Positions 1,954 to 44,951 are shown, counted from the stretch's first letter. The stretch: 64,000 nt of DNA from Clostridia bacterium (GCA_035409945.1 DAONQC010000001.1:87361-151360); one strand, 5' to 3'. Notes: generated from the sequence alone by a model not told the origin. Numbers and translations are program-made.

Positions 1954-4900
1954 TCACTCGGAAACTAAATATGTTGACCATATAGGATGATTAGCATAAT
2001 AAGATATCTTACTATTAGGTAATAATATATTTAGTTTGTTGTAATCATACGTGTCAAGCATGCCTCCATTAAAAATATGATTATACGTTATAACTTCTTT
2101 TTTATTGTCTTTCAAATCGATTGTTAAATTTGTTTCTCCATCCCAGTATAGCGAACTGTTACCTAGCTCTTTAAGATTAGTGAATTTATAAGTATGAACA
2201 TTTGGTGTGTTAAAAAAAGCGTAATTATAAACATGTAGCCCTTGTGGAGAGTCAATATCTGAAAAATTAAACATATACTCTTCTGGGTCGTACCTATCAG
2301 TATATATTTTTTGTAGATTTTGCATTGAACTAAATGCATATTCTCTTATTTCAATTAATTTTCCCCTTCCTAAAAATTTAACTTCACTCAAAAAGCTTGC
2401 ACCATAAAAGGCAAAGTCATTTATTACTGCTACCGATTGAGGAACTATGTAAGTAGGTTTGGTTGCGCCTGCCGGATAGGAAATTAACCTTTTTTTACTT
2501 TTATCGAACAAAACACCATCCTCTTGACTTAGTACAGGATTATCTTTTGCAACAAGATAAAACTTAATATTATTTAGTCCCATTAATGCTGTCGAGTTTA
2601 TACTAGTCACATAACTTAAGTCTATTGACTTAATTTGCAAGTTATACAAAGAATACGGAGCAAGCTCCTTTACATTTGATAAATTAATACCTTTGATTAT
2701 TCTTTGTTTAGCATTAAACGAATTTTTACCTAAATAATCAATTATTCTATATGATTGTCCATTTTCACTAAATTCTTTGGGAACATCTATATACCACTTC
2801 TTTGAAATCCAACAATACACCCCATACGTTCCTGTTGGCCGTTTAAATAGGATGCATTTATTTTCAGTATCTTTAAAAAGTCCATTTCTAAAAACATAAT
2901 AATCTTCACTAGGAACCCCATCTATCGAGACAATAATATAATTATCTATTATCTCTGTTTTAACAAATGTATTAAAATAATAATATTTTACATACTTATC
3001 TAAAATTTGAGCAGCCTTATTTAACATAGTTAATTTATTTAAATTGATGATGTAAAATTTATTCCCCCAATCTGTTTGAGCATATATTACAATTTCCATA
3101 TGCTTAATTAATGAACTGATTTTAATCGTTTCTGAATCTTTAAAATGTTCGTTTAACACTGTATAATTATTCAAACACCTTAAAAAAACACCAAAGTCTG
3201 TATATAATTTTTTCGCACATTCTCTGTATCTATTAATTAAAGAAAAGTTAGAAAACTCCATTGGAATAAACTCTGGGATGATGGTAACATCATATTCTTT
3301 CATTGTAAAAATATCTGATATATTTTCGCCCTCATCTCGCATATTGGATGTTTTATATAATTTTAAACTCTTAAGTTTATATCCTTTATCCGCTAATATA
3401 CTAAGTTCGACCAAAGCTCCAGAACTATATGTATTAGTGTTTTTTATAGTACTAACATTTCCGCCATAACTATTATCAATATCAACTCTATATGAAATAA
3501 CATTTGACGTGTTAACTATTTTATCATAATTGAGATTTATGATAGGAGTATTATCGGGTGTTGTAAATGTATTATTAATAATTCCTGTTAAATTGTAACG
3601 GATTTGTGTAACTGAATATTGATGATTATTTGCCCTACTATTTATAAAAACCGTAACGCTCTCTCCCTCAAAAGTTATTGATTTATCAGGATATATTAAG
3701 AAAAACTCATCTTCACAAGCATTAATAATAACAGTAGGTTTAAATATGACCATAATATTTATATTACTATTTTTCATTAAAAATCCAATCTTAGATTGTG
3801 AAAAATAAGTATCAATATCTGTTTCATTGCTATATGAAACTAGGGTATCTTCTTGTTCTCCGTTTTGCCCGTGTTTGACTACTAAACTGAATAAGCCAAA
3901 ACCTTCAGCAGGATTGATATCTAATTCTACTAATTCGTTAAATTGAGCCAATTCTGAATTAGACTCTATATTACCATTCCCCATTTGTGTAATTGTAATA
4001 TGGTATTCGTTTGTTGAAGTAACATGTTTAGGAATGGCTTTAATTTCTATATCATAACTAGGCATTAAAAACGACCCAGAATAAGAGCTAATTCCATCTA
4101 ATTCAATATTAACTTCTTCATATAAAGTACTATTCAAATTAATATATTTAAACTCAACGCTATTAGGGGCGAGCAAACTAGTATTTTCTAATTCAAGTTT
4201 AATTAATTCACCTTCAGTTGCGAAATCATGTGAAACAATTGGTTTCGGGGAATATGTATCAGATACTTTGATTTTATAAATTTGAGGTGAAAGCGTTATA
4301 GTTAATACAGAATCTTCATTAGGCATAATTAAATTATCTAATGATACAAAATTTCCATTTAAAAGTATATTATTAATTTTAACATTATCTAAATATGAAG
4401 TATCAAGAACAATTTTTTCCCCTTCATAAAAACGGTTTTCTATATTTGTGGTTGTTATTATTTTGTCAGAAGGTGTTCCTGAAGATTCTTTTACTTGTAT
4501 TGTTAAATTATATAATTTTTGTTTATTTATTGGTTGGATTATGGGTTTAATCAAAACAGTATCGTTGGGCATAATAAACCCTTCTATGTCGGTTGTACTC
4601 TGGTTGTTAATCAAAAGCTGCGTACATATAAAGCCCTCATCACATATAATTTCTATCGGAACATACTCTCCAGTACTAGCTTTTGTAACGAAAGTATTTA
4701 TTTTTATATTATTTGTTTCATCTATTGTAACATCGTATTTTACATCACAATTAATTTTTACTACTTCTGCCGCAATAGTAACTGGCTTGGAAGGCATTAG
4801 AAATGAATCTGAAACACTCTCACTTGTTTCTATAATGTAGATTTTATTGATGTAGTAACCTAATGACGGTATAGCGTCTACATAAACTGTATCATCTCTA

Positions 4901-5592
4901 TGAGCTAGTTCTTTACTTACATTAATGATAACATTTTCTTGTTTATAAACATTAACTTTTAACGGAGGCAGTTCAAATATTGCTATAATGGTAATGGGAT
5001 AGGGAGGCATTAAAAACGATTTGGTATCGTCGTTAATAATTATATCATCATTTATACCATCATTTGATTTAGCACATAGCGAACCAGGTTTTAGTATATA
5101 GTCGTGGTCGATGTATGAAATTTCAAGTGTGATTTCTGTACCTTTTGCTGCTGTGATTTTTGTATCTTTTGCTGTTTTATTTAAATTAGTCTTAATTTCT
5201 GCAACATCATAGCTAGCAATAAAAATTTCATGAGGATAAGTATCGACACTCTGCCATTTGGCAAAAATCGTTCTGCTTTCAACAGCTTTGAATAAATCAA
5301 TGTTAAGCTTATCTGCTGAATTAAAGCTTAAATCTAAATACCACCCAACAAAAACATATCCTTCTCTTATAGGTTCATGTTCTGGTAACTCAATTGTATC
5401 ATTTTTATTCAATGTAATACTAACTGCAGAAATATTTCCAGGAAAAACACCACCATTAGCATTAAATGAAATAACTATAGCTTTATTATTTTGTTGAGCA
5501 TTACTGTCACAAGAGCATAATAATGCTCCTGTTAAACATATAACAATAACTAACAATGCAATTACAAAATATTTATTCAATTTTACATACAT
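1954..5592 (-). CDS. Giant secreted or cell-surface protein with an N-terminal signal peptide, Listeria-Bacteroides (Flg_new/InlB-B type) repeats and C-terminal BspA-type leucine-rich repeats
   Basis: 1212 aa. The hydrophobic N-terminus is MYVKLNKYFVIALLVIVICLTGALLCSCDS. One repeat reads FNANGGVF...REGYVFVGWYLD...IFAKW. The C-terminal LRR-like units include NDFAFYGASFLSEVKF and IREYAFSSMQNLQKI. No Shine-Dalgarno sequence precedes the ATG. Confidence 0.75.
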   Translation of the reverse strand: MYVKLNKYFVIALLVIVICLTGALLCSCDSNAQQNNKAIVISFNANGGVFPGNISAVSITLNKNDTIELPEHEPIREGYVFVGWYLDLSFNSADKLNIDLFKAVESRTIFAKWQSVDTYPHEIFIASYDVAEIKTNLNKTAKDTKITAAKGTEITLEISYIDHDYILKPGSLCAKSNDGINDDIIINDDTKSFLMPPYPITIIAIFELPPLKVNVYKQENVIINVSKELAHRDDTVYVDAIPSLGYYINKIYIIETSESVSDSFLMPSKPVTIAAEVVKINCDVKYDVTIDETNNIKINTFVTKASTGEYVPIEIICDEGFICTQLLINNQSTTDIEGFIMPNDTVLIKPIIQPINKQKLYNLTIQVKESSGTPSDKIITTTNIENRFYEGEKIVLDTSYLDNVKINNILLNGNFVSLDNLIMPNEDSVLTITLSPQIYKIKVSDTYSPKPIVSHDFATEGELIKLELENTSLLAPNSVEFKYINLNSTLYEEVNIELDGISSYSGSFLMPSYDIEIKAIPKHVTSTNEYHITITQMGNGNIESNSELAQFNELVELDINPAEGFGLFSLVVKHGQNGEQEDTLVSYSNETDIDTYFSQSKIGFLMKNSNINIMVIFKPTVIINACEDEFFLIYPDKSITFEGESVTVFINSRANNHQYSVTQIRYNLTGIINNTFTTPDNTPIINLNYDKIVNTSNVISYRVDIDNSYGGNVSTIKNTNTYSSGALVELSILADKGYKLKSLKLYKTSNMRDEGENISDIFTMKEYDVTIIPEFIPMEFSNFSLINRYRECAKKLYTDFGVFLRCLNNYTVLNEHFKDSETIKISSLIKHMEIVIYAQTDWGNKFYIINLNKLTMLNKAAQILDKYVKYYYFNTFVKTEIIDNYIIVSIDGVPSEDYYVFRNGLFKDTENKCILFKRPTGTYGVYCWISKKWYIDVPKEFSENGQSYRIIDYLGKNSFNAKQRIIKGINLSNVKELAPYSLYNLQIKSIDLSYVTSINSTALMGLNNIKFYLVAKDNPVLSQEDGVLFDKSKKRLISYPAGATKPTYIVPQSVAVINDFAFYGASFLSEVKFLGRGKLIEIREYAFSSMQNLQKIYTDRYDPEEYMFNFSDIDSPQGLHVYNYAFFNTPNVHTYKFTNLKELGNSSLYWDGETNLTIDLKDNKKEVITYNHIFNGGMLDTYDYNKLNILLPNSKISYYANHPIWSTYLVSE

Positions 5593-12960: not shown

Positions 12961-13045
12961 TGGTGGGCAGGGATGGATTCGAACCATCGAAGTCTCCGAC
13001 GGCAGATTTACAGTCTGCTCCCTTTAACCACTCGGGAACCTACCC
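12961..13045 (-). tRNA. tRNA-Tyr (GTA), class II long variable arm, CCA encoded
   Basis: The reverse complement is GGGTAGGTTCCCGAGTGGTTAAAGGGAGCAGACTGTAAATCTGC...GGTTCGAATCCATCCCTGCCCACCA. I folded the cloverleaf by eye. The anticodon loop is CTGTAAA. Confidence 0.9.
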
Positions 13046-13057
13046 ATATATTTAAAT

Positions 13058-13133
13058 TGGAGCTGGCTATCGGATTTGAACCAACGACCTACTGATTACA
13101 AATCAGTTGCTCTACCAGCTGAGCTAAGCCAGC
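13058..13133 (-). tRNA. tRNA-Thr (TGT)
   Basis: The reverse complement is GCTGGCTTAGCTCAGCTGGTAGAGCAACTGATTTGTAATCAGTAGGTCGTTGGTTCAAATCCGATAGCCAGCTCCA. The anticodon loop is TTTGTAA. Confidence 0.9.
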
Positions 13134-13146
13134 ATACACTTAGACT

Positions 13147-13222
13147 TGGTGCCTTGGGACGGAATTGAACCGCCGACACAGGGATTTTCAGTCCCTTGCT
13201 CTACCGACTGAGCTACCAAGGC
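13147..13222 (-). tRNA. tRNA-Phe (GAA)
   Basis: The reverse complement is GCCTTGGTAGCTCAGTCGGTAGAGCAAGGGACTGAAAATCCCTGTGTCGGCGGTTCAATTCCGTCCCAAGGCACCA. Confidence 0.92.
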
Positions 13223-13228
13223 AAAAAA

Positions 13229-13305
13229 TGGCGATCCGGAAGGGACTCGAACCCTCGACCTCTAGCGTGACAGGCTAGCGTTCTAACCAACTGAACTACC
13301 GGACC
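13229..13305 (-). tRNA. tRNA-Asp (GTC)
   Basis: The reverse complement is GGTCCGGTAGTTCAGTTGGTTAGAACGCTAGCCTGTCACGCTAGAGGTCGAGGGTTCGAGTCCCTTCCGGATCGCCA. Confidence 0.92.
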
Positions 13306-13347
13306 TTAAAGTCATTCATTTTTTACAGCATATACTAATTTAATTGG

Positions 13348-13424
13348 TGGTGGGCCTTCACGGACTCGAACCGCGGACCAGTCGGTTATGAGCCGACCGC
13401 TCTAACCAACTGAGCTAAAGGCCC
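13348..13424 (-). tRNA. tRNA with CAT anticodon (elongator Met or lysidine-type Ile2; not initiator-like)
   Basis: The reverse complement is GGGCCTTTAGCTCAGTTGGTTAGAGCGGTCGGCTCATAACCGACTGGTCCGCGGTTCGAGTCCGTGAAGGCCCACCA. The 1:72 pair is G-C and the anticodon stem lacks the three-G:C stack of initiators. Confidence 0.85.
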
Positions 13425-13442
13425 TCACGCATTTTATGCCTT

Positions 13443-13519
13443 TGGTCGGGATGAAGAGATTTGAACTCCCAGCCTCTTGGTCCCAAACCAAGCGCGCTAC
13501 CAAGTTGCGCCACATCCCG
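13443..13519 (-). tRNA. tRNA-Pro (TGG)
   Basis: The reverse complement is CGGGATGTGGCGCAACTTGGTAGCGCGCTTGGTTTGGGACCAAGAGGCTGGGAGTTCAAATCTCTTCATCCCGACCA. Confidence 0.9.
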
Positions 13520-31631: not shown

Positions 31632-31718
31632 GCGGGCGTGGCGGAATTGGCAGACGCGTTAGATTCAGGTTCTAATGGTTGCAAGGCTGTGCAGGTTCAA
31701 GTCCTGTCGCCCGCACCA
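31632..31718 (+). tRNA. tRNA-Leu (CAG), class II
   Basis: GCGGGCGTGGCGGAATTGGCAGACGCGTTAGATTCAGGTTCTAATGGTTGCAAGGCTGTGCAGGTTCAAGTCCTGTCGCCCGCACCA. The anticodon loop is TTCAGGT. Confidence 0.9.
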
Positions 31719-31759: not shown

Positions 31760-31843
31760 GCGGTCGTGGCGGAACTGGCAGACGCGTACGTTTGAGGGGC
31801 GTATGGTTATACCGTATGGGTTCAAGTCCCATCGACCGCACCA
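31760..31843 (+). tRNA. tRNA-Leu (GAG), class II
   Basis: GCGGTCGTGGCGGAACTGGCAGACGCGTACGTTTGAGGGGCGTATGGTTATACCGTATGGGTTCAAGTCCCATCGACCGCACCA. The anticodon loop is TTGAGGG. Confidence 0.88.
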
Positions 31844-31863: not shown

Positions 31864-31889
31864 ATCAGCTTTTTGCTGATATTTTTTTG
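31864..31889 (+). terminator. Terminator hairpin between the convergent tRNA-Leu genes and the PurL-like gene
   Basis: ATCAGC-ttttt-GCTGAT followed by ATTTTTTT. Confidence 0.6.
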
Positions 31890-31895
31890 TCGAAT

Positions 31896-34895
31896 TTATT
31901 TATCAGGACTGAAAAAATATTCTTTGGCATTTTTGAACATGCCATCAAGGAGTTCTGCTGTTCCTCCAGGTATATGGTAAGTTTTTTCAATCGAAGTGAA
32001 AAATCCAAGGACCCTACCATTTGGAGACATAATACTGCTCATTGAAAAAGATGAACCTAGCGAATTATCTAATACTTTTGACGTAATGTCACCATTGTCA
32101 TCAATATATTGAGATGTAATCTGATTATTTTTAATTAATAGTTCACCTAGCTTTTCATCCACTTTAATTTTCATCATGTTTTCTGGAAATGCGGTTTTAT
32201 AAACCGAACCAATTTTGGTTTTAGATAACCATATTGAATCATTAGAAGAAATACGTATTCTTTGTGTCAGTGCTTTAATATTATTAACATTGTTATCTTG
32301 AAATTTAATCGGCGCGTTTTCTGAATTGCCATATGGTAAATACCCCAATTTAAATAGCGCTCTCGTTCCTTCGCCACAGCCCAATATCAACCCTAAATTC
32401 CTAATGGCAACTTCATTTATGGCATCTATGATTTCTGGACGTTTTAGTATAGAATATAACAAGTCTCCAGAAAATTTATTGTTCACAGTATTTTGACCAC
32501 ATAGTACAATAATATTTGCTTTCGAAATATCTATTCTTAAACCGCGAACAAACATATCGTTTATATAAATCGTATCAGTGAAATCACGTAAGTTTACACT
32601 AAAGCCTGCCTTATGGCATATTCCTCTAAATATATCACCAGAAACCTTATCAAAAGTTAAAATTAATACTTCAGGTTTATGCAAATATTTATTGAAAAAC
32701 TGAGTTTGTTCAAGCTTTTGCGTTGTAAATGCTGATGTAACTTTCCCATCCCCCATATCTATATTTTGTTTCTTTACAACATCATAATTTGCATTATACG
32801 GCTGCCCTTTTACATCTCTAAACACACCCGTTGCATCAACAACGCCAACATATAGGCTTTTAAGTGCTCCCATTTCTTTTATGTCAGAAACAGAAATTAA
32901 AAGGCCACCCTTTTCTTCATTGCCATTTAGATATCTATCTTCACTAAACGCGAGAGAAAAACCCAGTCCATTACCAATAATAGATGACATAATTGATTTA
33001 TTAATAGATTTTTCTACCACAATTGCAGATTGTATATTGCCGGACATTATCTGCATATTGATGGCACTAGTTAATTTAAGAAAATATTTTAAATCAGGCA
33101 CACCATAATCATCTTTTTCAATTGGAAAATAGAACAATTTTTGACCAACTTTAAATTGATTTGCAATAGTTGTGCTATTTGAATAACCTATGGCATGAGA
33201 AATAACTTGTAGGCTTTTACAACTATCACTTTTTTTTATGTCTGCTTTAATATTAGGGATAGAAAGGATCATTTGCGAATAAAAAACAGCTAATATGGCC
33301 TCCAATACTTTCCCCATATCATCAATGTTTGTTGGATAATAAAGGGAGATTGTTGTTGCTATGTGATGCGTTGGCACCCCTAATAAAACAAGCTTTAAAA
33401 CCGACATAATCATTGACTCTAGTACTGTTATAAAAATTGTTTTGTTGTTGGACTCGATGGTGGATGAAAAAAACAATTTCAACTTATCAAAACCGCATTC
33501 ATCAAACACAAACATATATGCTTGTGATTTCGTGTTTTGCCTTTCTCCGATAAACTGCGGCAAAGCAGTTTTACCTCCTTTGAATATATCAAATTTCAAA
33601 CAAGCATCGTCGTTGGGTTTGTTGATTTGTGTTTTATTTAGTCTTAATTTTGAGCAAGGTTCAATCATATTATCAAGTTCAATTTTTAGCACAGTTTCAT
33701 TATGGAAGTTCCCCCACAATACCTTATGAGTTAAATTAAAAATTGTTAGAGGACCTTTTAAAATTCTTATTGCCTTACTTTTAGTGATTTTACCTATATC
33801 AAAAATAGAAAAACTTCTTTGTTCACAAAATTCAGTAAAAGCATATTTTTCTTCTGGTTTTACTATTGCAACGATGTATTGATGCGTTGGATTCATAAAG
33901 AAATTTTCAAAACTTTCTGTTTTTAATGGTAGCTTTTCAAATAATATATCAATACCTTTTGCAATTTGAACAAGTGCATTAAACAAACCTGCTTCACATG
34001 TATAAGGTTTGACATTAAAATGATAAAAAGCACCTTCATTCGCAAGACGACAGAAATCTATTCCTTTCAAATGATCCTTTTGATTAGTACACACCAACAA
34101 AATTCTATCTCCATTATTATGTTCAGCTGCTTTTTTCAATCTAAAATGAGAAGTTTTTAACATGGTAACTTCATTAATCCCTTCAAAGCATATGGAATTA
34201 TCATAAAATGGTATTTGTAACATACAGGCAACATTTAAGTCATCTGCAATTTTAGATATGGCTTTGTGTGAAGTCTCGCTGTTGATAGTATTTTCTATTA
34301 TCGCTAGAGGTTCAAAACCATCTAAAGATGATTTATATACGACACTCTCCACAGATGATATAAGCTCATCAAAAGAAGTACTATGGTTAATATTAATAGA
34401 GAGATTATTATTCTCACCATCACCGGTGCCTTTGCAACAAAAAACTACACTATCATCATTTTTGTTGTGGAAGATTGTACCAAGATTTTGGGATGATAAT
34501 TCAGATATTGCTAACTTTAAAAATGATTCTATTGTTTTTTCTCTAGGTTTGTTAAGTTTTAAATTGATTTTATTGTATAGATCAAGGGATTTATTTATAT
34601 GTGGATTTTGGGACAATATTTCAATTTTGTTAATATAAGAATTCAGTATGTATTTATCCGTACGTCTAAATTTGTCAATTGCTATTAATTCTAGTGAAGA
34701 AGGTTCTGTATTTATGCCTCTATAATACTCTTCAATTTCAATTAAGTCATCTTTAGATAATTTTAATTCAAGTTCCAGTATCAACTGTTCTAACTGAGTA
34801 TTCGTGAAAGTTGTAAAGCCATCTATTTTTTTATTAATAGGTTGAAAATCAAAAGATTCTGCCGTTTGTCCTGTTTCTGCGATAAATTTAATCAT
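31896..34895 (-). CDS. FGAM synthase (PurL)-like protein lacking recognisable catalytic residues; probable pseudoenzyme
   Basis: 999 aa with no signal peptide. By eye it is collinear with single-chain PurL from the linker region through the AIRS-like domains to the C-terminal triad-glutaminase domain, but the key motifs are replaced (details in findings). Its ATG overlaps the upstream stop in an ATGA, and it has no SD of its own. Confidence 0.65.
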   Translation of the reverse strand: MIKFIAETGQTAESFDFQPINKKIDGFTTFTNTQLEQLILELELKLSKDDLIEIEEYYRGINTEPSSLELIAIDKFRRTDKYILNSYINKIEILSQNPHINKSLDLYNKINLKLNKPREKTIESFLKLAISELSSQNLGTIFHNKNDDSVVFCCKGTGDGENNNLSININHSTSFDELISSVESVVYKSSLDGFEPLAIIENTINSETSHKAISKIADDLNVACMLQIPFYDNSICFEGINEVTMLKTSHFRLKKAAEHNNGDRILLVCTNQKDHLKGIDFCRLANEGAFYHFNVKPYTCEAGLFNALVQIAKGIDILFEKLPLKTESFENFFMNPTHQYIVAIVKPEEKYAFTEFCEQRSFSIFDIGKITKSKAIRILKGPLTIFNLTHKVLWGNFHNETVLKIELDNMIEPCSKLRLNKTQINKPNDDACLKFDIFKGGKTALPQFIGERQNTKSQAYMFVFDECGFDKLKLFFSSTIESNNKTIFITVLESMIMSVLKLVLLGVPTHHIATTISLYYPTNIDDMGKVLEAILAVFYSQMILSIPNIKADIKKSDSCKSLQVISHAIGYSNSTTIANQFKVGQKLFYFPIEKDDYGVPDLKYFLKLTSAINMQIMSGNIQSAIVVEKSINKSIMSSIIGNGLGFSLAFSEDRYLNGNEEKGGLLISVSDIKEMGALKSLYVGVVDATGVFRDVKGQPYNANYDVVKKQNIDMGDGKVTSAFTTQKLEQTQFFNKYLHKPEVLILTFDKVSGDIFRGICHKAGFSVNLRDFTDTIYINDMFVRGLRIDISKANIIVLCGQNTVNNKFSGDLLYSILKRPEIIDAINEVAIRNLGLILGCGEGTRALFKLGYLPYGNSENAPIKFQDNNVNNIKALTQRIRISSNDSIWLSKTKIGSVYKTAFPENMMKIKVDEKLGELLIKNNQITSQYIDDNGDITSKVLDNSLGSSFSMSSIMSPNGRVLGFFTSIEKTYHIPGGTAELLDGMFKNAKEYFFSPDK

Positions 34896-37800
34896 GTAAT
34901 TTCAATCAATGTATTATTCTCTTCACTGAAAAATGTTGTTACAAACTGATCTTCTCTGTAACTTTCAATATTAGTTACTTCTAGCTTACAAGTAGTTGAG
35001 ATCCCTTTAAACGAATTAACAGAGAAACTTACTTTATGATTTTCTCTTTTGATAGTAATAGTGTTTAAAACATTACAGCCTGAAAAAGCCTCATTCCCAA
35101 TAAGGTCGATTTTACTATCTTTATTAAATGTTATGCTTATTATGTTACTAGGTCTGTCGCTAAAAATTTTTGTTTTAAAAGCTCCATCTGCTATAGCAAT
35201 GATTTCGTCTGGAATAGAAACCTCATTAGACTCACTTTTCTCGTAGTTATACGTTAAGAGCACTTGTCCTAATTTGATAAACTCTTCGTTGGATTGTGTC
35301 ATATACCAGGGGTTGTCTTCGTTTAACACACATTCCCCCAATGTTTTGAGATTAGAATTTTCTCCTATTGAGACGGTACTTAATTTATAACAACCTTTGA
35401 AAGCAAAGCTTTCAATTGCAGTAACTTCATTTGGTATATTGAAGGACAACAGATTTTCACAACCTGAAAATGCCATCCTACCTATTCTGGATAAGTTAGA
35501 ACCATTAAAATTGTCATCTAAATCAAGGAAACTAATATGTTTTATGTTCTTACAATTAGCAAAGGCACCAGGTATAATTTCTTGAGTATTAGATGAAATT
35601 TCATATGTATTATTAGCATAAGTTTTTTGAGCGGGAACTAAATAGATTTTGGTATTATCAGTAGATACAATGGAATCTTGAGCATCTAAAACAAAACAAT
35701 CATTACCATCAAAGCTAATTGTTTCTAAAAGACTACAACCTAAGAAAGCCAAGTCTCCTATATGAATTATTGAACTAGGGATTGAAATTTTATTAAATTT
35801 AACTCCATGATCATAGGAAGCAAAAGCTCCTGACGCAATTGAAACAACAGGTTTCCCATTGTGTTTTGCAGGGATAACCATTTCTCCTATTTCAACATTT
35901 TTAATCGCAGGATTGTAATTAACAAGTTTATATGATGTTTGTTCAGCCGAATAATATTCAAATTCTAAACCTTCTGTTCCTGCTAATAAGTCAGTCCAAT
36001 AAGCATAAAAACTCGTTTCGCCTTTAATTGTTACTTCTGAATTGCTTTCTATCATTTCTGAAGTGTAATTACTATCTGTAAAACACCCCATGTATTGGAA
36101 ATTGCTTTCCCTTCCATCATCAGGATATTTAGGAACTTCTGTAAAATATGTACTTGGGTTTATAGGCGAACCATGTTCGACTATCATTTCTTTTTGTGTA
36201 TAATTTTTTATAATCTCATAATTGGGCTCGCTCCCAGTTATTTTCCACGTATATAAACTAACATTATATTCATTAATTTTGAGTAACGGTGTAAAAGATC
36301 TATCTAAGAAAGGCTCTGCATTAAATTGTCTAAAATCCTTAATTTCAATTTGATTAGACTCGCTAAAATAATACTCTTCCGAAGGATGAACTGTCCCTAT
36401 ATAATTCCAGTACGCAATATTTTCAGCGGACGGAACTATTCCTAATGTAGAATTTTGTTCACATTGATAAAAACCTTCATTATAACGTACTAATTCATTT
36501 TTTTGATATTCTGTATCTGCGCTATAATCCACACAGTTCTTTTTATGTCTCCATCCAATAATTGTATAACCTTCTATGTTATAACTAGGAGGCGTAGTTA
36601 GAGAATTAGGTCTAACTGTTTGTCTTATTGCGTTGTATTCTCCATACTCTGAAGGAATCACAAAATCAACAATATAGTCTCTATATTCCCACACAGCCCT
36701 AAGAATCCGTTCATCTGCAATATGAGAAACTCTAAATGGGAATGTTATATCCTTCCTATTAACTTGCCACTTCACATTAATATATTTAACATCGAAACCA
36801 TCATACTCTTGTTCGCCAATAGTCAAATTTTGATATAAGTTAATCATGTCCGTCTGTATAAGCTCAGTCCCAAATTCATATTCACGAGTTATAGTGAGGG
36901 CATCACTATAATCGCTATCATGCCTAAACATCTCAAATTTAAACTGCACTGGATATTTATTAGCATCATATATCGCATAAACATTCGTATTACCTTTGAT
37001 GTAAAAGTCTGATATGTCAACTTTCTGCTTATTGCCACTTTCAAGTATAGACCAAAAACCAGTGTGTCCATCTTTGTTTGGTGGTTCTGGTGGATTTTGC
37101 AATATACTATTATAGTCAACTCCTGTTCTTCTTAAATCTAAGATTTCATTTTCATCTTCGTCTAAAAATCTTACTTGATATTTTAACTTAGTATATCTAG
37201 CTACTATGTTGTAATCTCTGAAAACACCTGTTTTAAAATCGTGAATAACCGTGTTGTTGTTATCATAATCTACCCATTCAACACTATGCCCATCAACCTG
37301 CACTGCTGATAAAGGAGAAAAGTGCGTATCGAATGATTCGCCATATCTTACGTTTTCTATTATAGGCGTAAAAGTAGATCCGTCTAGCGGAGATATAGCA
37401 CTGTATTTAACTGTAAAAGTTTTTGTCCTATATTCTAAAAGAATTCGAAAATTTGCTATTACTTCAACCGTAGTGTCTTGATCATCAACATATGTGTATT
37501 CTTGATAGGACTCAGGTACATTGTCTACAATTTTTTGTACACTGTATTTTACAAAATCACTACTAGGAAACCTATCAGGGATTCTCAGTGTGATTATAGA
37601 ACCGTGTTTGAATGTTTGTTTATTAACCCCAGGAATATCTTGTATTGCACCATCTATACTAATCTTATATTCAACTGACCAATTATCAGGCGATTCCCAT
37701 TTAGCATACAGGGTAATATCTTTGGTAACTATTTTGCCAGTAACATATTTTGTCTCAATTCTATCAATATCTTCAAACCAGCCTGCAAATATATACCCTT

Positions 37801-38269
37801 CTCTTTTGGGTACAACTATGGCATCCATTTCGCTCAATGACTTAGTTATTACTTTACTATTCACATCGGATCCGAAATATCCTTCACTAGCATTAAATGT
37901 AACATTAAATTCTGATATGATTGGTTTCGGTTTAACAGTGACTGTTACAAAGGTTCTTTCCCCCTTGTATAAAATTTCAAGCGTTTTCGTGCCAACAGTA
38001 TTTAATTTATCACGTTCTGCATCATCTTTGAGTATTTCAGGCGTCAATCTAATTTGTTCTAACAAATTATCTCCTGAAAAAACGTTGAGAGTATAATCTC
38101 TCCATTCGACCGCATCTGTATCACTTTTAAAAAAAATAATATCCTCAGAGGAAGTAACCGTAATATTATTACCTGATTGCACTACTTCATCTGGTTTGCA
38201 TCCAATTAATGTAAACACTAAAATAGCAATCGCTATGGTTATTAGAAAAATTATTAGTTTTTTGATCAT
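34892..38269 (-). CDS. Giant surface lipoprotein with Listeria-Bacteroides (Flg_new) repeats and BspA-type leucine-rich repeats
   Basis: 1125 aa. The signal peptide plus lipobox is MIKKLIIFLITIAIAILVFTLIGC. Repeats include FNASEGYF...REGYIFAGWFED...LYAKW, GHTGFWS and GYTIIGWRH. C-terminal LRR units include IASGAFAS, IGDLAFLGCSLLETISF, IGRMAFSGCENLLSFNIP, IESFAFKGCYKLSTVSI and IGNEAFSGCNVLNTITI. Confidence 0.8.
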   Translation of the reverse strand: MIKKLIIFLITIAIAILVFTLIGCKPDEVVQSGNNITVTSSEDIIFFKSDTDAVEWRDYTLNVFSGDNLLEQIRLTPEILKDDAERDKLNTVGTKTLEILYKGERTFVTVTVKPKPIISEFNVTFNASEGYFGSDVNSKVITKSLSEMDAIVVPKREGYIFAGWFEDIDRIETKYVTGKIVTKDITLYAKWESPDNWSVEYKISIDGAIQDIPGVNKQTFKHGSIITLRIPDRFPSSDFVKYSVQKIVDNVPESYQEYTYVDDQDTTVEVIANFRILLEYRTKTFTVKYSAISPLDGSTFTPIIENVRYGESFDTHFSPLSAVQVDGHSVEWVDYDNNNTVIHDFKTGVFRDYNIVARYTKLKYQVRFLDEDENEILDLRRTGVDYNSILQNPPEPPNKDGHTGFWSILESGNKQKVDISDFYIKGNTNVYAIYDANKYPVQFKFEMFRHDSDYSDALTITREYEFGTELIQTDMINLYQNLTIGEQEYDGFDVKYINVKWQVNRKDITFPFRVSHIADERILRAVWEYRDYIVDFVIPSEYGEYNAIRQTVRPNSLTTPPSYNIEGYTIIGWRHKKNCVDYSADTEYQKNELVRYNEGFYQCEQNSTLGIVPSAENIAYWNYIGTVHPSEEYYFSESNQIEIKDFRQFNAEPFLDRSFTPLLKINEYNVSLYTWKITGSEPNYEIIKNYTQKEMIVEHGSPINPSTYFTEVPKYPDDGRESNFQYMGCFTDSNYTSEMIESNSEVTIKGETSFYAYWTDLLAGTEGLEFEYYSAEQTSYKLVNYNPAIKNVEIGEMVIPAKHNGKPVVSIASGAFASYDHGVKFNKISIPSSIIHIGDLAFLGCSLLETISFDGNDCFVLDAQDSIVSTDNTKIYLVPAQKTYANNTYEISSNTQEIIPGAFANCKNIKHISFLDLDDNFNGSNLSRIGRMAFSGCENLLSFNIPNEVTAIESFAFKGCYKLSTVSIGENSNLKTLGECVLNEDNPWYMTQSNEEFIKLGQVLLTYNYEKSESNEVSIPDEIIAIADGAFKTKIFSDRPSNIISITFNKDSKIDLIGNEAFSGCNVLNTITIKRENHKVSFSVNSFKGISTTCKLEVTNIESYREDQFVTTFFSEENNTLIEIT

Positions 38270-38277
38270 AATAGTTT

Positions 38278-38312
38278 TAAGATTACATACATCATTATAA
38301 GATTACATACAT
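38278..38312 (-). repeat. Two copies of a 15-bp direct repeat (period 20 bp) in the 5' leader of the lipoprotein gene
   Basis: On the plus strand, TAAGATTACATACAT occurs at 38278-38292 and 38298-38312. On the minus strand the unit is ATGTATGTAATCTTA. Confidence 0.8.
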
Positions 38313-38330
38313 AATTATTTACATATTAAT

Positions 38331-38359
38331 ATTTAACATTAAAATTAATTAATAGTCAA
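38331..38359 (-). promoter_or_regulatory. Candidate promoter of the lipoprotein/PurL-like operon
   Basis: The minus strand reads TTGACT-N17-(TGt)TTAAAT. The -10 ends 18 nt upstream of the first ATGTATGTAA repeat. Confidence 0.35.
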
Positions 38360-38470
38360 TGTATAGATTAATCTCGTGAGCGCGCGTCACTAAATTTTCA
38401 GGTACTTTTCAATTTAAGAAAATACTGTTAGAATTCTCTAATTAGGCAAAGACTAGAGTCAGAGGTTATT

Positions 38471-38496
38471 AAAAACGGCTATTTCCCAATAGCCGT
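38471..38496 (-). terminator. Rho-independent terminator after pnp
   Basis: The minus strand reads ACGGCTAT-tgggaa-ATAGCCGT followed by TTTTTAAT. Confidence 0.7.
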
Positions 38497-44444: not shown

Positions 44445-44951
44445 TTAATACTCAATCTCCTTTATTTTAGTGTTTATATATTTAGTAAATACGAAATTAT
44501 ACCCGTTATCTACTTGATTATCACTTGCTTCTTTATGAATCCAATTTAGTTTTTCATCAAGATTTGGAAAAAAAACAGTGGCATCATCACAGGTGGCATC
44601 TACCTTCGTAACATAAGCACTCTCACAATAATCAAGCATTGTACGGTAAAACATTGCTCCGCCTATGATAAAAATGTCATCTGTATTATATTTTTTTAAT
44701 TCATAAAATAATTCCTTTAATGTAGGAACTATAATACAGTCGTCCCTAGTAAAAACATCTGTAAGTACAATGTTTATCCTATTCGGCAATGGTTTCGACT
44801 TAGGTAGTGATAACAAAGTATTGCCCCCCATTACTACTATTTTATTTCTTGTTATATTTTTAAAATATCTCAAATCTGCAGGAATATGAAATAAAAGTCC
44901 ATTATTTTTTCCAATACCCCAGTTTTTATCTACACAAACTATTATATGCAT
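44445..44951 (-). CDS. folA: Dihydrofolate reductase
   Basis: 168 aa with IGKNN.L...P.DL..FK..T, VVMGGNT, LP.R.NIVLT and IIGGA..Y. Confidence 0.9.
   Translation of the reverse strand: MHIIVCVDKNWGIGKNNGLLFHIPADLRYFKNITRNKIVVMGGNTLLSLPKSKPLPNRINIVLTDVFTRDDCIIVPTLKELFYELKKYNTDDIFIIGGAMFYRTMLDYCESAYVTKVDATCDDATVFFPNLDEKLNWIHKEASDNQVDNGYNFVFTKYINTKIKEIEY

Follow-up and report, generated by a model that had tools for sequence, protein, structure and literature searches.

The 64,000-nucleotide stretch of a Clostridia bacterium genome analyzed here (GCA_035409945.1, DAONQC010000001.1:87361-151360; hereafter the window) contains two large adjoining genes on its minus strand, one for a putative surface lipoprotein and one for a protein related to the purine-biosynthesis enzyme PurL. 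The upstream gene (34892-38269) encodes the lipoprotein of 1125 amino acids and the downstream gene (31896-34895) encodes the PurL-like protein of 999 amino acids. At their junction the minus strand reads ...gaaattacATGAttaaa, and therefore the ATG of the PurL-like gene (34895-34893) overlaps the TGA of the lipoprotein gene (34894-34892) in an ATGA at positions 34892-34895. A preliminary description of the window had proposed that these two open reading frames (ORFs) are joined in this way, and its coordinates proved to be exact. The boundaries it assigned to the pair were also found: a pnp terminator on the 5' side (38475-38496, minus strand; a hairpin with a 9-bp stem followed by TTTTT), and on the 3' side a hairpin with a T-run (31864-31880, plus strand) that ends the convergent tRNA-Leu genes at 31632-31718 and 31760-31843 and marks the end of the operon. 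The T-run of the latter hairpin is on the plus strand only; no T-run follows the hairpin on the minus strand. The analysis below shows that the pair is real, conserved and undescribed, and that it is an autonomous two-gene operon, vertically inherited in an uncultured, Christensenellaceae-like lineage of Clostridia from gut and biogas samples.

The lipoprotein begins with MIKK followed by a hydrophobic core and the sequence L-I-G-C (MIKKLIIFLITIAIAILVFTLIGC), with the lipobox cysteine at residue 24. Read from the translation, the signal peptide and lipobox (residues 1-24) occupy positions 38198-38269 on the minus strand. They conform to a Sec signal peptide with a lipobox of the type [LVI][ASTVI][GAS]C, and the protein is accordingly a predicted target of lipidation. 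Orthologues carry LIGC, LVGC, LVAC, LFAC, LIAC or ITAC wherever the N-terminus is present. The signal peptide is followed by Flg_new-type repeats (Pfam Flg_new, 61.4 bits with a gathering threshold of 27) and a C-terminal BspA-type leucine-rich repeat (LRR) region (LRR_5, 85.5 bits with a gathering threshold of 27.7), and the TIGR02543 repeat is also matched. A second giant Flg_new/Flg_new_2 protein of 1212 aa is encoded elsewhere in the window (1954-5592, minus strand). Its gene has neither a Shine-Dalgarno sequence nor an adjoining PurL-like gene, and its resemblance to the partner lipoprotein is confined to a local match of 123 aa.

Pfam assigned a single domain, GATase_5 (75.6 bits), to the PurL-like protein. 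Its best sequence match was TIGR01857, the model for clostridial single-chain FGAM synthetase (EC 6.3.5.3), with 143.3 bits where the cut-off is 1057. The PurQ models TIGR01737 (33.7, cut-off 177.8) and NF002957 (24.1, cut-off 212) also scored well below their cut-offs. Searches of the PDB with the single sequence or a profile returned no match to solved PurL structures, and no hydrophobic segment of signal-peptide or transmembrane grade was detected in the protein. AlphaFold2 modeling with an alignment of 63 sequences gave a predicted local distance difference test score (pLDDT) of 84.4 and a predicted template modeling score of 0.89; this depth was needed for a confident model, and with a three-sequence alignment the pLDDT was 29. 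The top solved structures matched by the model in Foldseek were Salmonella large PurL (lgPurL; 1T3T and mutants thereof), 4LGY and human PFAS, all aligned over the whole length with a template modeling (TM) score of 0.70 and 12% identity, and small PurL, HypE, ThiL and PurM matched parts of the model. The protein is thus confidently predicted to have the overall fold of large PurL, made up of the linker, the A1-B1 and A2-B2 units, and the GATase domain.

Alignment with 25 bona fide PurLs of ~1240 aa indicated that this fold has been stripped of its catalytic residues. The PurS-like N-domain is absent, and the protein begins where the N-domain ends, with the linker motif P65/E69 kept. The motifs ETHNHP, GGAxTxxGGxIRD and DFGAGG of the catalytic half and the A2 motif IGGKDS are lost in the window protein and in every other member of the ~1000-aa family to which it belongs. 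In the glutaminase domain, the oxyanion motif GGFS is lost and the column of the catalytic cysteine is now occupied by Gly841. The nucleophile elbow, G-I-C-N-G-F-Q in PurL, has been remodeled to G839-C-G841-E842-G-T-R845 (32361-32381, minus strand), and the G, E and R of the resulting G-x-G-E-G-x-R motif are conserved in 76-88% of the family versus 0% of bona fide PurL. Cys840 was considered as a shifted nucleophile and rejected for lack of conservation, even among the closest relatives. The former triad His-x-Glu now reads S968-I-E970 (31986-31994, minus strand); the histidine is lost and the glutamate, Glu970, is retained in 94% of family members. Among the 214 columns conserved in at least 90% of real PurLs, 53 are kept, with just 11 of 104 kept in the catalytic A1-B1 half. 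The structural glycines of large PurL are preserved. Given the loss of the synthetase motifs and of both Cys and His, the protein is a pseudoenzyme with respect to both PurL activities, and the earlier use of that term is now confirmed residue by residue.

Relatives of the PurL-like protein were found by an exhaustive HMMER search; word-index protein searches gave just 3-4 of them. The family of ~900-1015 aa, defined by end-to-end matches, comprises clusters P0001-P0015, P0017, P0020, P0021, P0024, P0029 and P0031. A scan of genome contigs gave one locus, and a metagenome scan gave one 5'-truncated locus and one genuine purL. Named members come from metagenome-assembled genomes (MAGs) labeled Clostridia, Christensenellaceae or Candidatus Stercoripulliclostridium (Bacillota), obtained from biogas reactors and guts. 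Intact ORFs of ~1000 aa are present in more than 15 clusters and their length is preserved down to 20% identity. The ratio of nonsynonymous to synonymous substitution rates (dN/dS) of the gene between two near-identical strains is 0.13, a value based on only 6 substitutions. Together with the new conserved motif, the uninterrupted reading frames, the kept length and this ratio argue that the gene is not decaying. Full-length PurLs of ~1220-1250 aa that are partly degenerate were also seen: P0019 has GIDDGF and P0038 GISNGF for GICNGF, and P0022 and P0032 lack HNHP. These sequences suggest that half-dead paralogues of PurL occur along the route to the fully dead family. Four family members (HQC54210.1, MDR0696709.1, MBO8423983.1 and MDE6618093.1) carry the NCBI name "phosphoribosylformylglycinamidine synthase subunit PurQ". 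This is a misannotation, because the protein has 999 aa (PurQ has ~220-260 aa), falls below the PurQ cut-offs and has an incomplete triad. The label could distort metabolic reconstruction, with MAGs being wrongly credited with a purine-biosynthesis step, and the protein should be listed under neither the PurL nor the PurQ name.

The genomic context of the family was surveyed for 12 clusters plus the genome and metagenome matches, which amounts to about half of the family clusters. In 12 of 12 informative contexts of the ~1000-aa family, spread over five neighborhoods, a Flg_new/LRR_5 gene with a product of ~1000-1180 aa lies directly upstream of the PurL-like gene (the window and loci L001/L003, L002, L004, L005, L006, L008/L009, L010, L011, L012 and L013). 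Locus L007 includes just the last 61 residues of the upstream gene product, and these have the same C-terminal pattern. The upstream products of L001-L006, L008, L011 and L012 align almost end to end with the window lipoprotein; judged by such alignments, the partner lipoproteins are one orthologous group with a fixed architecture of ~1000-1180 aa. The surroundings of the pair vary. It is preceded by pnp in the window, L002, L003, L005 and L008. The neighbors are RuvX/DUF1292/MBG upstream and GH38 downstream in L006, uxuA-uxaC-kdgK-eda upstream and Hpt/Fe-ADH downstream in L012, a recG-like gene upstream and an M42 peptidase downstream in L013, and another distinct gene set in L011. The preliminary description had proposed constant adjacency to a Flg_new/LRR lipoprotein gene as the test of its idea of a coupled two-gene module. 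Adjacency held in all 12 informative contexts, with junctions of -11 to +17 nt, and this conserved linkage supports its central interpretation.

The junction itself was compared in 14 loci including the window. The distances between the two reading frames are -11, -4, -4, -1, -1, +1 (five loci), +2, +9 (two loci) and +17 nt, so that 10 of the 14 fall within -4 to +2 nt. A junction this tight is more than a chance event, as it recurs in 13 related loci. A programmed frameshift fusing both ORFs was considered and rejected because the relative frame at the junction varies among loci; the lack of a constant frame relation excludes such a fusion and fits co-translation of two separate products. Conserved overlapping or abutting stop and start codons are the mark of a translationally coupled operon, and translation of the downstream gene would then depend on that of the upstream one. 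The preliminary description had also pointed to the missing Shine-Dalgarno sequence of the PurL-like gene as a sign of coupling. The sequence is indeed absent (anti-Shine-Dalgarno duplex of -1.6 kcal/mol, versus a window median of -6.0), but its absence says little by itself because about one third of the ORFs in the window also lack one, including the lipoprotein gene (+0.8).

Transcription signals are found upstream of the lipoprotein gene. A -35 hexamer, TTGACT (38354-38359, minus strand), is followed by the extended -10 element TGTTAAATA (38330-38338, minus strand). The latter was missed by a simple consensus scan and found by comparing related loci: all 10 complete loci have TTGACT/A at the equivalent place, then 14-15 nt, then TG(T/A)TA(A/T)A.T. 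The lipoprotein gene therefore has a strong, conserved promoter of the sigma-A type. The junction of the two genes, which leaves no room for one, has no comparable element. With a conserved promoter of its own, the pair is the self-contained unit it had been taken for. The predicted 5' leader contains two copies of ATGTATGTAATCTTA (38278-38312, minus strand), and the leaders of the distant loci L013 and L006 hold related TATGTAAT(C/T)T motifs; the repeat may be a regulatory or translation-initiation element. A search of the leader for Rfam families and riboswitches detected no known RNA family. In the A+T-rich spacer between the pnp terminator and the promoter there is a G+C-rich near-palindrome, GTGACGCGCGCTCAC (38376-38390, minus strand), and L005 and L006 have G+C-rich patches of the CGCGCG type at similar places. 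Elsewhere in the window, six tRNA genes are clustered (Tyr, Thr, Phe, Asp, Met and Pro; 12961-13519, minus strand) in what looks like an ordinary arrangement.

Both members of the pair are diverging rapidly. In successive loci, the identity of the lipoprotein and of the PurL-like protein to their window counterparts is 62/66, 36/48, 35/34, 33/33, 29/31, 23/26, 24/24 and 24/24%, while the flanking proteins of the same loci are far better conserved (PNPase, 93, 77 and 73%; PGI, 86 and 62%; HPF, 85 and 47%). The two partners thus change in step, and much faster than their housekeeping neighbors. The pairwise identities of the two proteins are correlated with r = 0.91, to which shared phylogeny contributes. 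At the level of strains, the lipoprotein genes of the near-identical L001 (109-3471) and L003 (3347-6712) differ at 59 nucleotides, clustered at residues 240-330 and 570-630, while there are 6 differences in the PurL-like gene and none in hpf or the gene of the AP-endonuclease family. The surface-exposed repeat region of the lipoprotein is a hot spot for variation or recombination. In L009 (4461-7991) the lipoprotein gene is split into ORFs of 134 and 1029 aa by a short scrambled patch with indels (L008 4843-4899), and the remainder is nearly identical to the gene in L008 (4443-7991). The split may reflect inactivation in this strain, a region that varies, or an error of assembly.

In some lineages a third gene lies directly downstream of the PurL-like gene (L006:11052-11564, L008:11062-11568, L011:6475-6981 and, in an outgroup without the pairing, L014:11166-11771). 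In L006, L008/L009 and L011 its product is a protein of 168-170 aa in which three membrane helices are predicted and whose C-terminal domain gives a weak match to DUF5673. The downstream product in L014 matches DUF5673 above threshold, and the size range over all is 168-201 aa. The four DUF5673-like proteins align along their length. Since the first loop is strongly basic, the positive-inside rule would place the DUF5673 domain in the cytoplasm. A hidden Markov model (HMM) built from these proteins was run on the 64-kb window and on L001-L005, L012 and L013 without a match, and in the window and its closest relatives, where the gene is missing, the pair is followed by tRNA-Leu genes. An ORF of 168 aa in the window (44445-44951) was considered as the third gene and rejected for want of any similarity to the DUF5673-like proteins. 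A distant dead PurL, P0028, also lacks the N-domain; it has 1027 aa, with FGAR-AT_linker from residue 14, and the linker, AIRS_C and the histidine have been kept. The link of the dead PurL to the DUF5673 protein may be older than that to the lipoprotein.

How a cytosolic pseudoenzyme might serve a surface lipoprotein can be sketched as follows. The second cistron would be translated by ribosomes ending on the first through termination-reinitiation, in which case both proteins would be made together and in a fixed ratio. The dead PurL would act by binding, without catalysis, as the cytoplasmic partner of the lipoprotein at the membrane, and the binding would most plausibly take place in the remodeled glutaminase pocket (G-E-G-x-R together with Glu970). 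Since the protein lacks an export signal, direct contact with the lipoprotein would be confined to the time before or during export; any other contact would have to be relayed by a membrane protein, for example the DUF5673 protein. With access so limited, the dead PurL would most likely serve either the giant precursor, as a dedicated holdase or targeting factor, or a membrane-spanning assembly, as its inner arm. In the lineages that have it, the three-helix DUF5673-like protein would tether the dead PurL to the membrane. We tentatively favor this general reading, namely that the dead PurL is a dedicated, non-catalytic cytoplasmic accessory of the lipoprotein, be it a holdase/targeting factor or the inner arm of a membrane-associated complex, while placing its probability somewhat short of even.

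Several points weigh against such an accessory role. Contact between the two proteins, their localization and their translational coupling are all inferred from sequence. Shared phylogeny combined with relaxed constraint would also produce equal rates of change and a correlation of 0.91, and the lack of a Shine-Dalgarno sequence is not specific to the PurL-like gene. A dedicated chaperone of 1000 aa would be unusual. The absence of the DUF5673 gene from the window and its closest relatives means that a membrane tether is not obligatory, and clusters P0007, P0009, P0010, P0012, P0014, P0020, P0021, P0026, P0029 and P0031 lie outside the context survey. Finally, the outgroup pseudo-PurL P0028 has no lipoprotein partner gene, so that association with the lipoprotein defines the ~1000-aa family rather than all degenerate PurLs. 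This outgroup speaks for the main rival, according to which the dead PurL binds a ligand or has a regulatory role in the cytosol, perhaps sensing glutamine or a purine intermediate, and does a job physically unrelated to the lipoprotein. On this view the adjacency persists solely because the PurL-like gene, lacking its own promoter and ribosome-binding site, is expressed from the strong promoter and by the ribosomes of its neighbor. A single conserved promoter upstream of the lipoprotein gene, a second gene without its own Shine-Dalgarno sequence or, in nearly all loci, any intergenic space, and a remodeled pocket whose conserved charged residues could bind a small molecule are all as expected from such an arrangement, and we consider it a real possibility, if a doubtful one. 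What counts against it is that the adjacency has outlasted at least four neighborhood rearrangements and divergence down to 20% identity, with no case seen of the PurL-like gene being captured by another operon; moreover, both proteins change at the same unusually high rate and all known substrate- and nucleotide-binding motifs are gone. In third place we rank a new enzymatic activity on the PurL scaffold, using E842, R845 and E970 or the acidic cluster D595/D601/D671/D687 and perhaps acting on an envelope precursor or on the lipoprotein. The polar residues conserved specifically in this family, both where the glutaminase site used to be and in the A2-B2 half, the evidence of purifying selection and a fold retained with high model confidence would all suit an enzyme. 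We nevertheless regard this as unlikely: no nucleophile replaces the lost cysteine (the neighboring Cys840 is not conserved), the oxyanion GGFS and all nucleotide-binding motifs have disappeared, and most of the conserved positions are glycines.

Two further explanations are the least probable. A decaying purL relic that came to lie beside a surface-protein gene by chance might be suspected from the very weak PurL similarity (143 bits versus a cut-off of 1057) and from the lack of any sequence match to solved PurL structures. The uninterrupted ~1000-aa ORFs of many lineages, the confident predicted fold, the dN/dS of 0.13 and the pairing in 12 of 12 contexts have effectively refuted it. The preliminary description had further suggested that the pair was inserted among housekeeping genes, and a mobile island or anti-phage defense cassette at this site would account for a compact unit with its own promoter, bounded by terminators and tRNA genes, for the fast evolution of both proteins, and for the between-strain variation hot spot in the lipoprotein gene. 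However, the GC content is uniform across the window and the order pnp-pair-hpf is also found in relatives whose PNPase is just 73-77% identical, which argues that there was no recent insertion and that the position is ancestral; the idea of an insertion is therefore not supported. In addition, neither protein matched a PADLOC model, phage and plasmid collections contained only distant genuine PurLs, viral contigs contained nothing, and no integrase or repeats were noticed at the borders. A mobile or defense origin is thus highly improbable.

The operon is also of broader interest. Gut anaerobes have many BspA-type LRR and Flg_new proteins, which are poorly understood, and the pair offers a specific experimental entry to them. 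It is conceivable, though on balance rather unlikely, that the pair (with the DUF5673 protein where present) constitutes a new envelope-spanning assembly in which a non-catalytic PurL scaffold inside the cell is functionally wired to a fast-evolving LRR lipoprotein outside. Such an assembly might report to the cell interior that a ligand has bound, or act as a license for the lipoprotein to be exported and displayed. Its PurL pseudoenzyme would be the first outside viruses to have a partner protein dedicated to it.

Among known systems, the closest in fold is the large single-chain PurL (TIGR01857 type; 1T3T; human PFAS), which has the same multi-domain arrangement (a linker, a PurM-superfamily pseudo-dimer of A1-B1 and A2-B2, and a class-I glutaminase domain at the C-terminus), and from which the window protein has inherited the structural glycines and Glu970. 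It differs from these enzymes in being ~240 aa shorter, without the PurS-like N-domain, in having lost HNHP/GGxIRD, DFGAGG, IGGKDS and the triad Cys and His, and in being encoded outside any pur operon, behind a surface lipoprotein gene. The upstream product has the hallmarks of BspA-type LRR_5/Flg_new (Listeria-Bacteroides-repeat) surface proteins: it exceeds the Pfam cut-offs for the two domains and has a lipoprotein signal. In contrast to BspA-type proteins at large, the partner lipoproteins form one orthologous group whose genes are followed by a dead PurL gene. We know of no such PurL pairing for BspA, LrrA or internalins, and literature searches gave none. Full-text searches likewise uncovered no publication that treats bacterial pseudoenzymes derived from PurL, the function of DUF5673 or the present pairing, in keeping with the earlier suggestion that the system is undescribed. 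In its stop/start overlap, its second gene without a ribosome-binding site of its own and its co-inheritance, the operon is reminiscent of translationally coupled pairs in which one gene encodes a secreted protein and the other a chaperone or accessory factor dedicated to it. Here, however, the accessory would be a 1000-aa enzyme-derived fold rather than a small chaperone, and the likeness would be one of function only.

To our knowledge, PurL-derived pseudoenzymes are otherwise well known only from gammaherpesviruses. Their vFGARAT/pseudo-GAT tegument proteins (ORF75, BNRF1) have a PurL fold without catalytic residues and act via protein-protein contacts (PMC7605207). The model of the PurL-like protein matches them with TM scores of 0.5-0.6 and E-values of about 1e-33 to 1e-28, and they share with it the combination of a PurL fold and lost catalytic residues. 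The viral proteins, on the other hand, are ~1300 aa long, keep the N-domain region, function in the nuclei and cytoplasm of eukaryotic cells and are not partnered by a lipoprotein, whereas the window protein is encoded in a bacterial chromosome context and had no close viral homologue in the collections searched, which sets it apart from the viral tegument proteins. Because the bacterial family is nearest to clostridial PurL by sequence, it would have lost activity independently of them. The herpesviral tegument proteins may nonetheless be its nearest functional analogues, and a bacterial PurL pseudoenzyme under selection, with a remodeled pocket and an obligate operon partner, would represent an independent recruitment of a large metabolic enzyme to a non-metabolic role.

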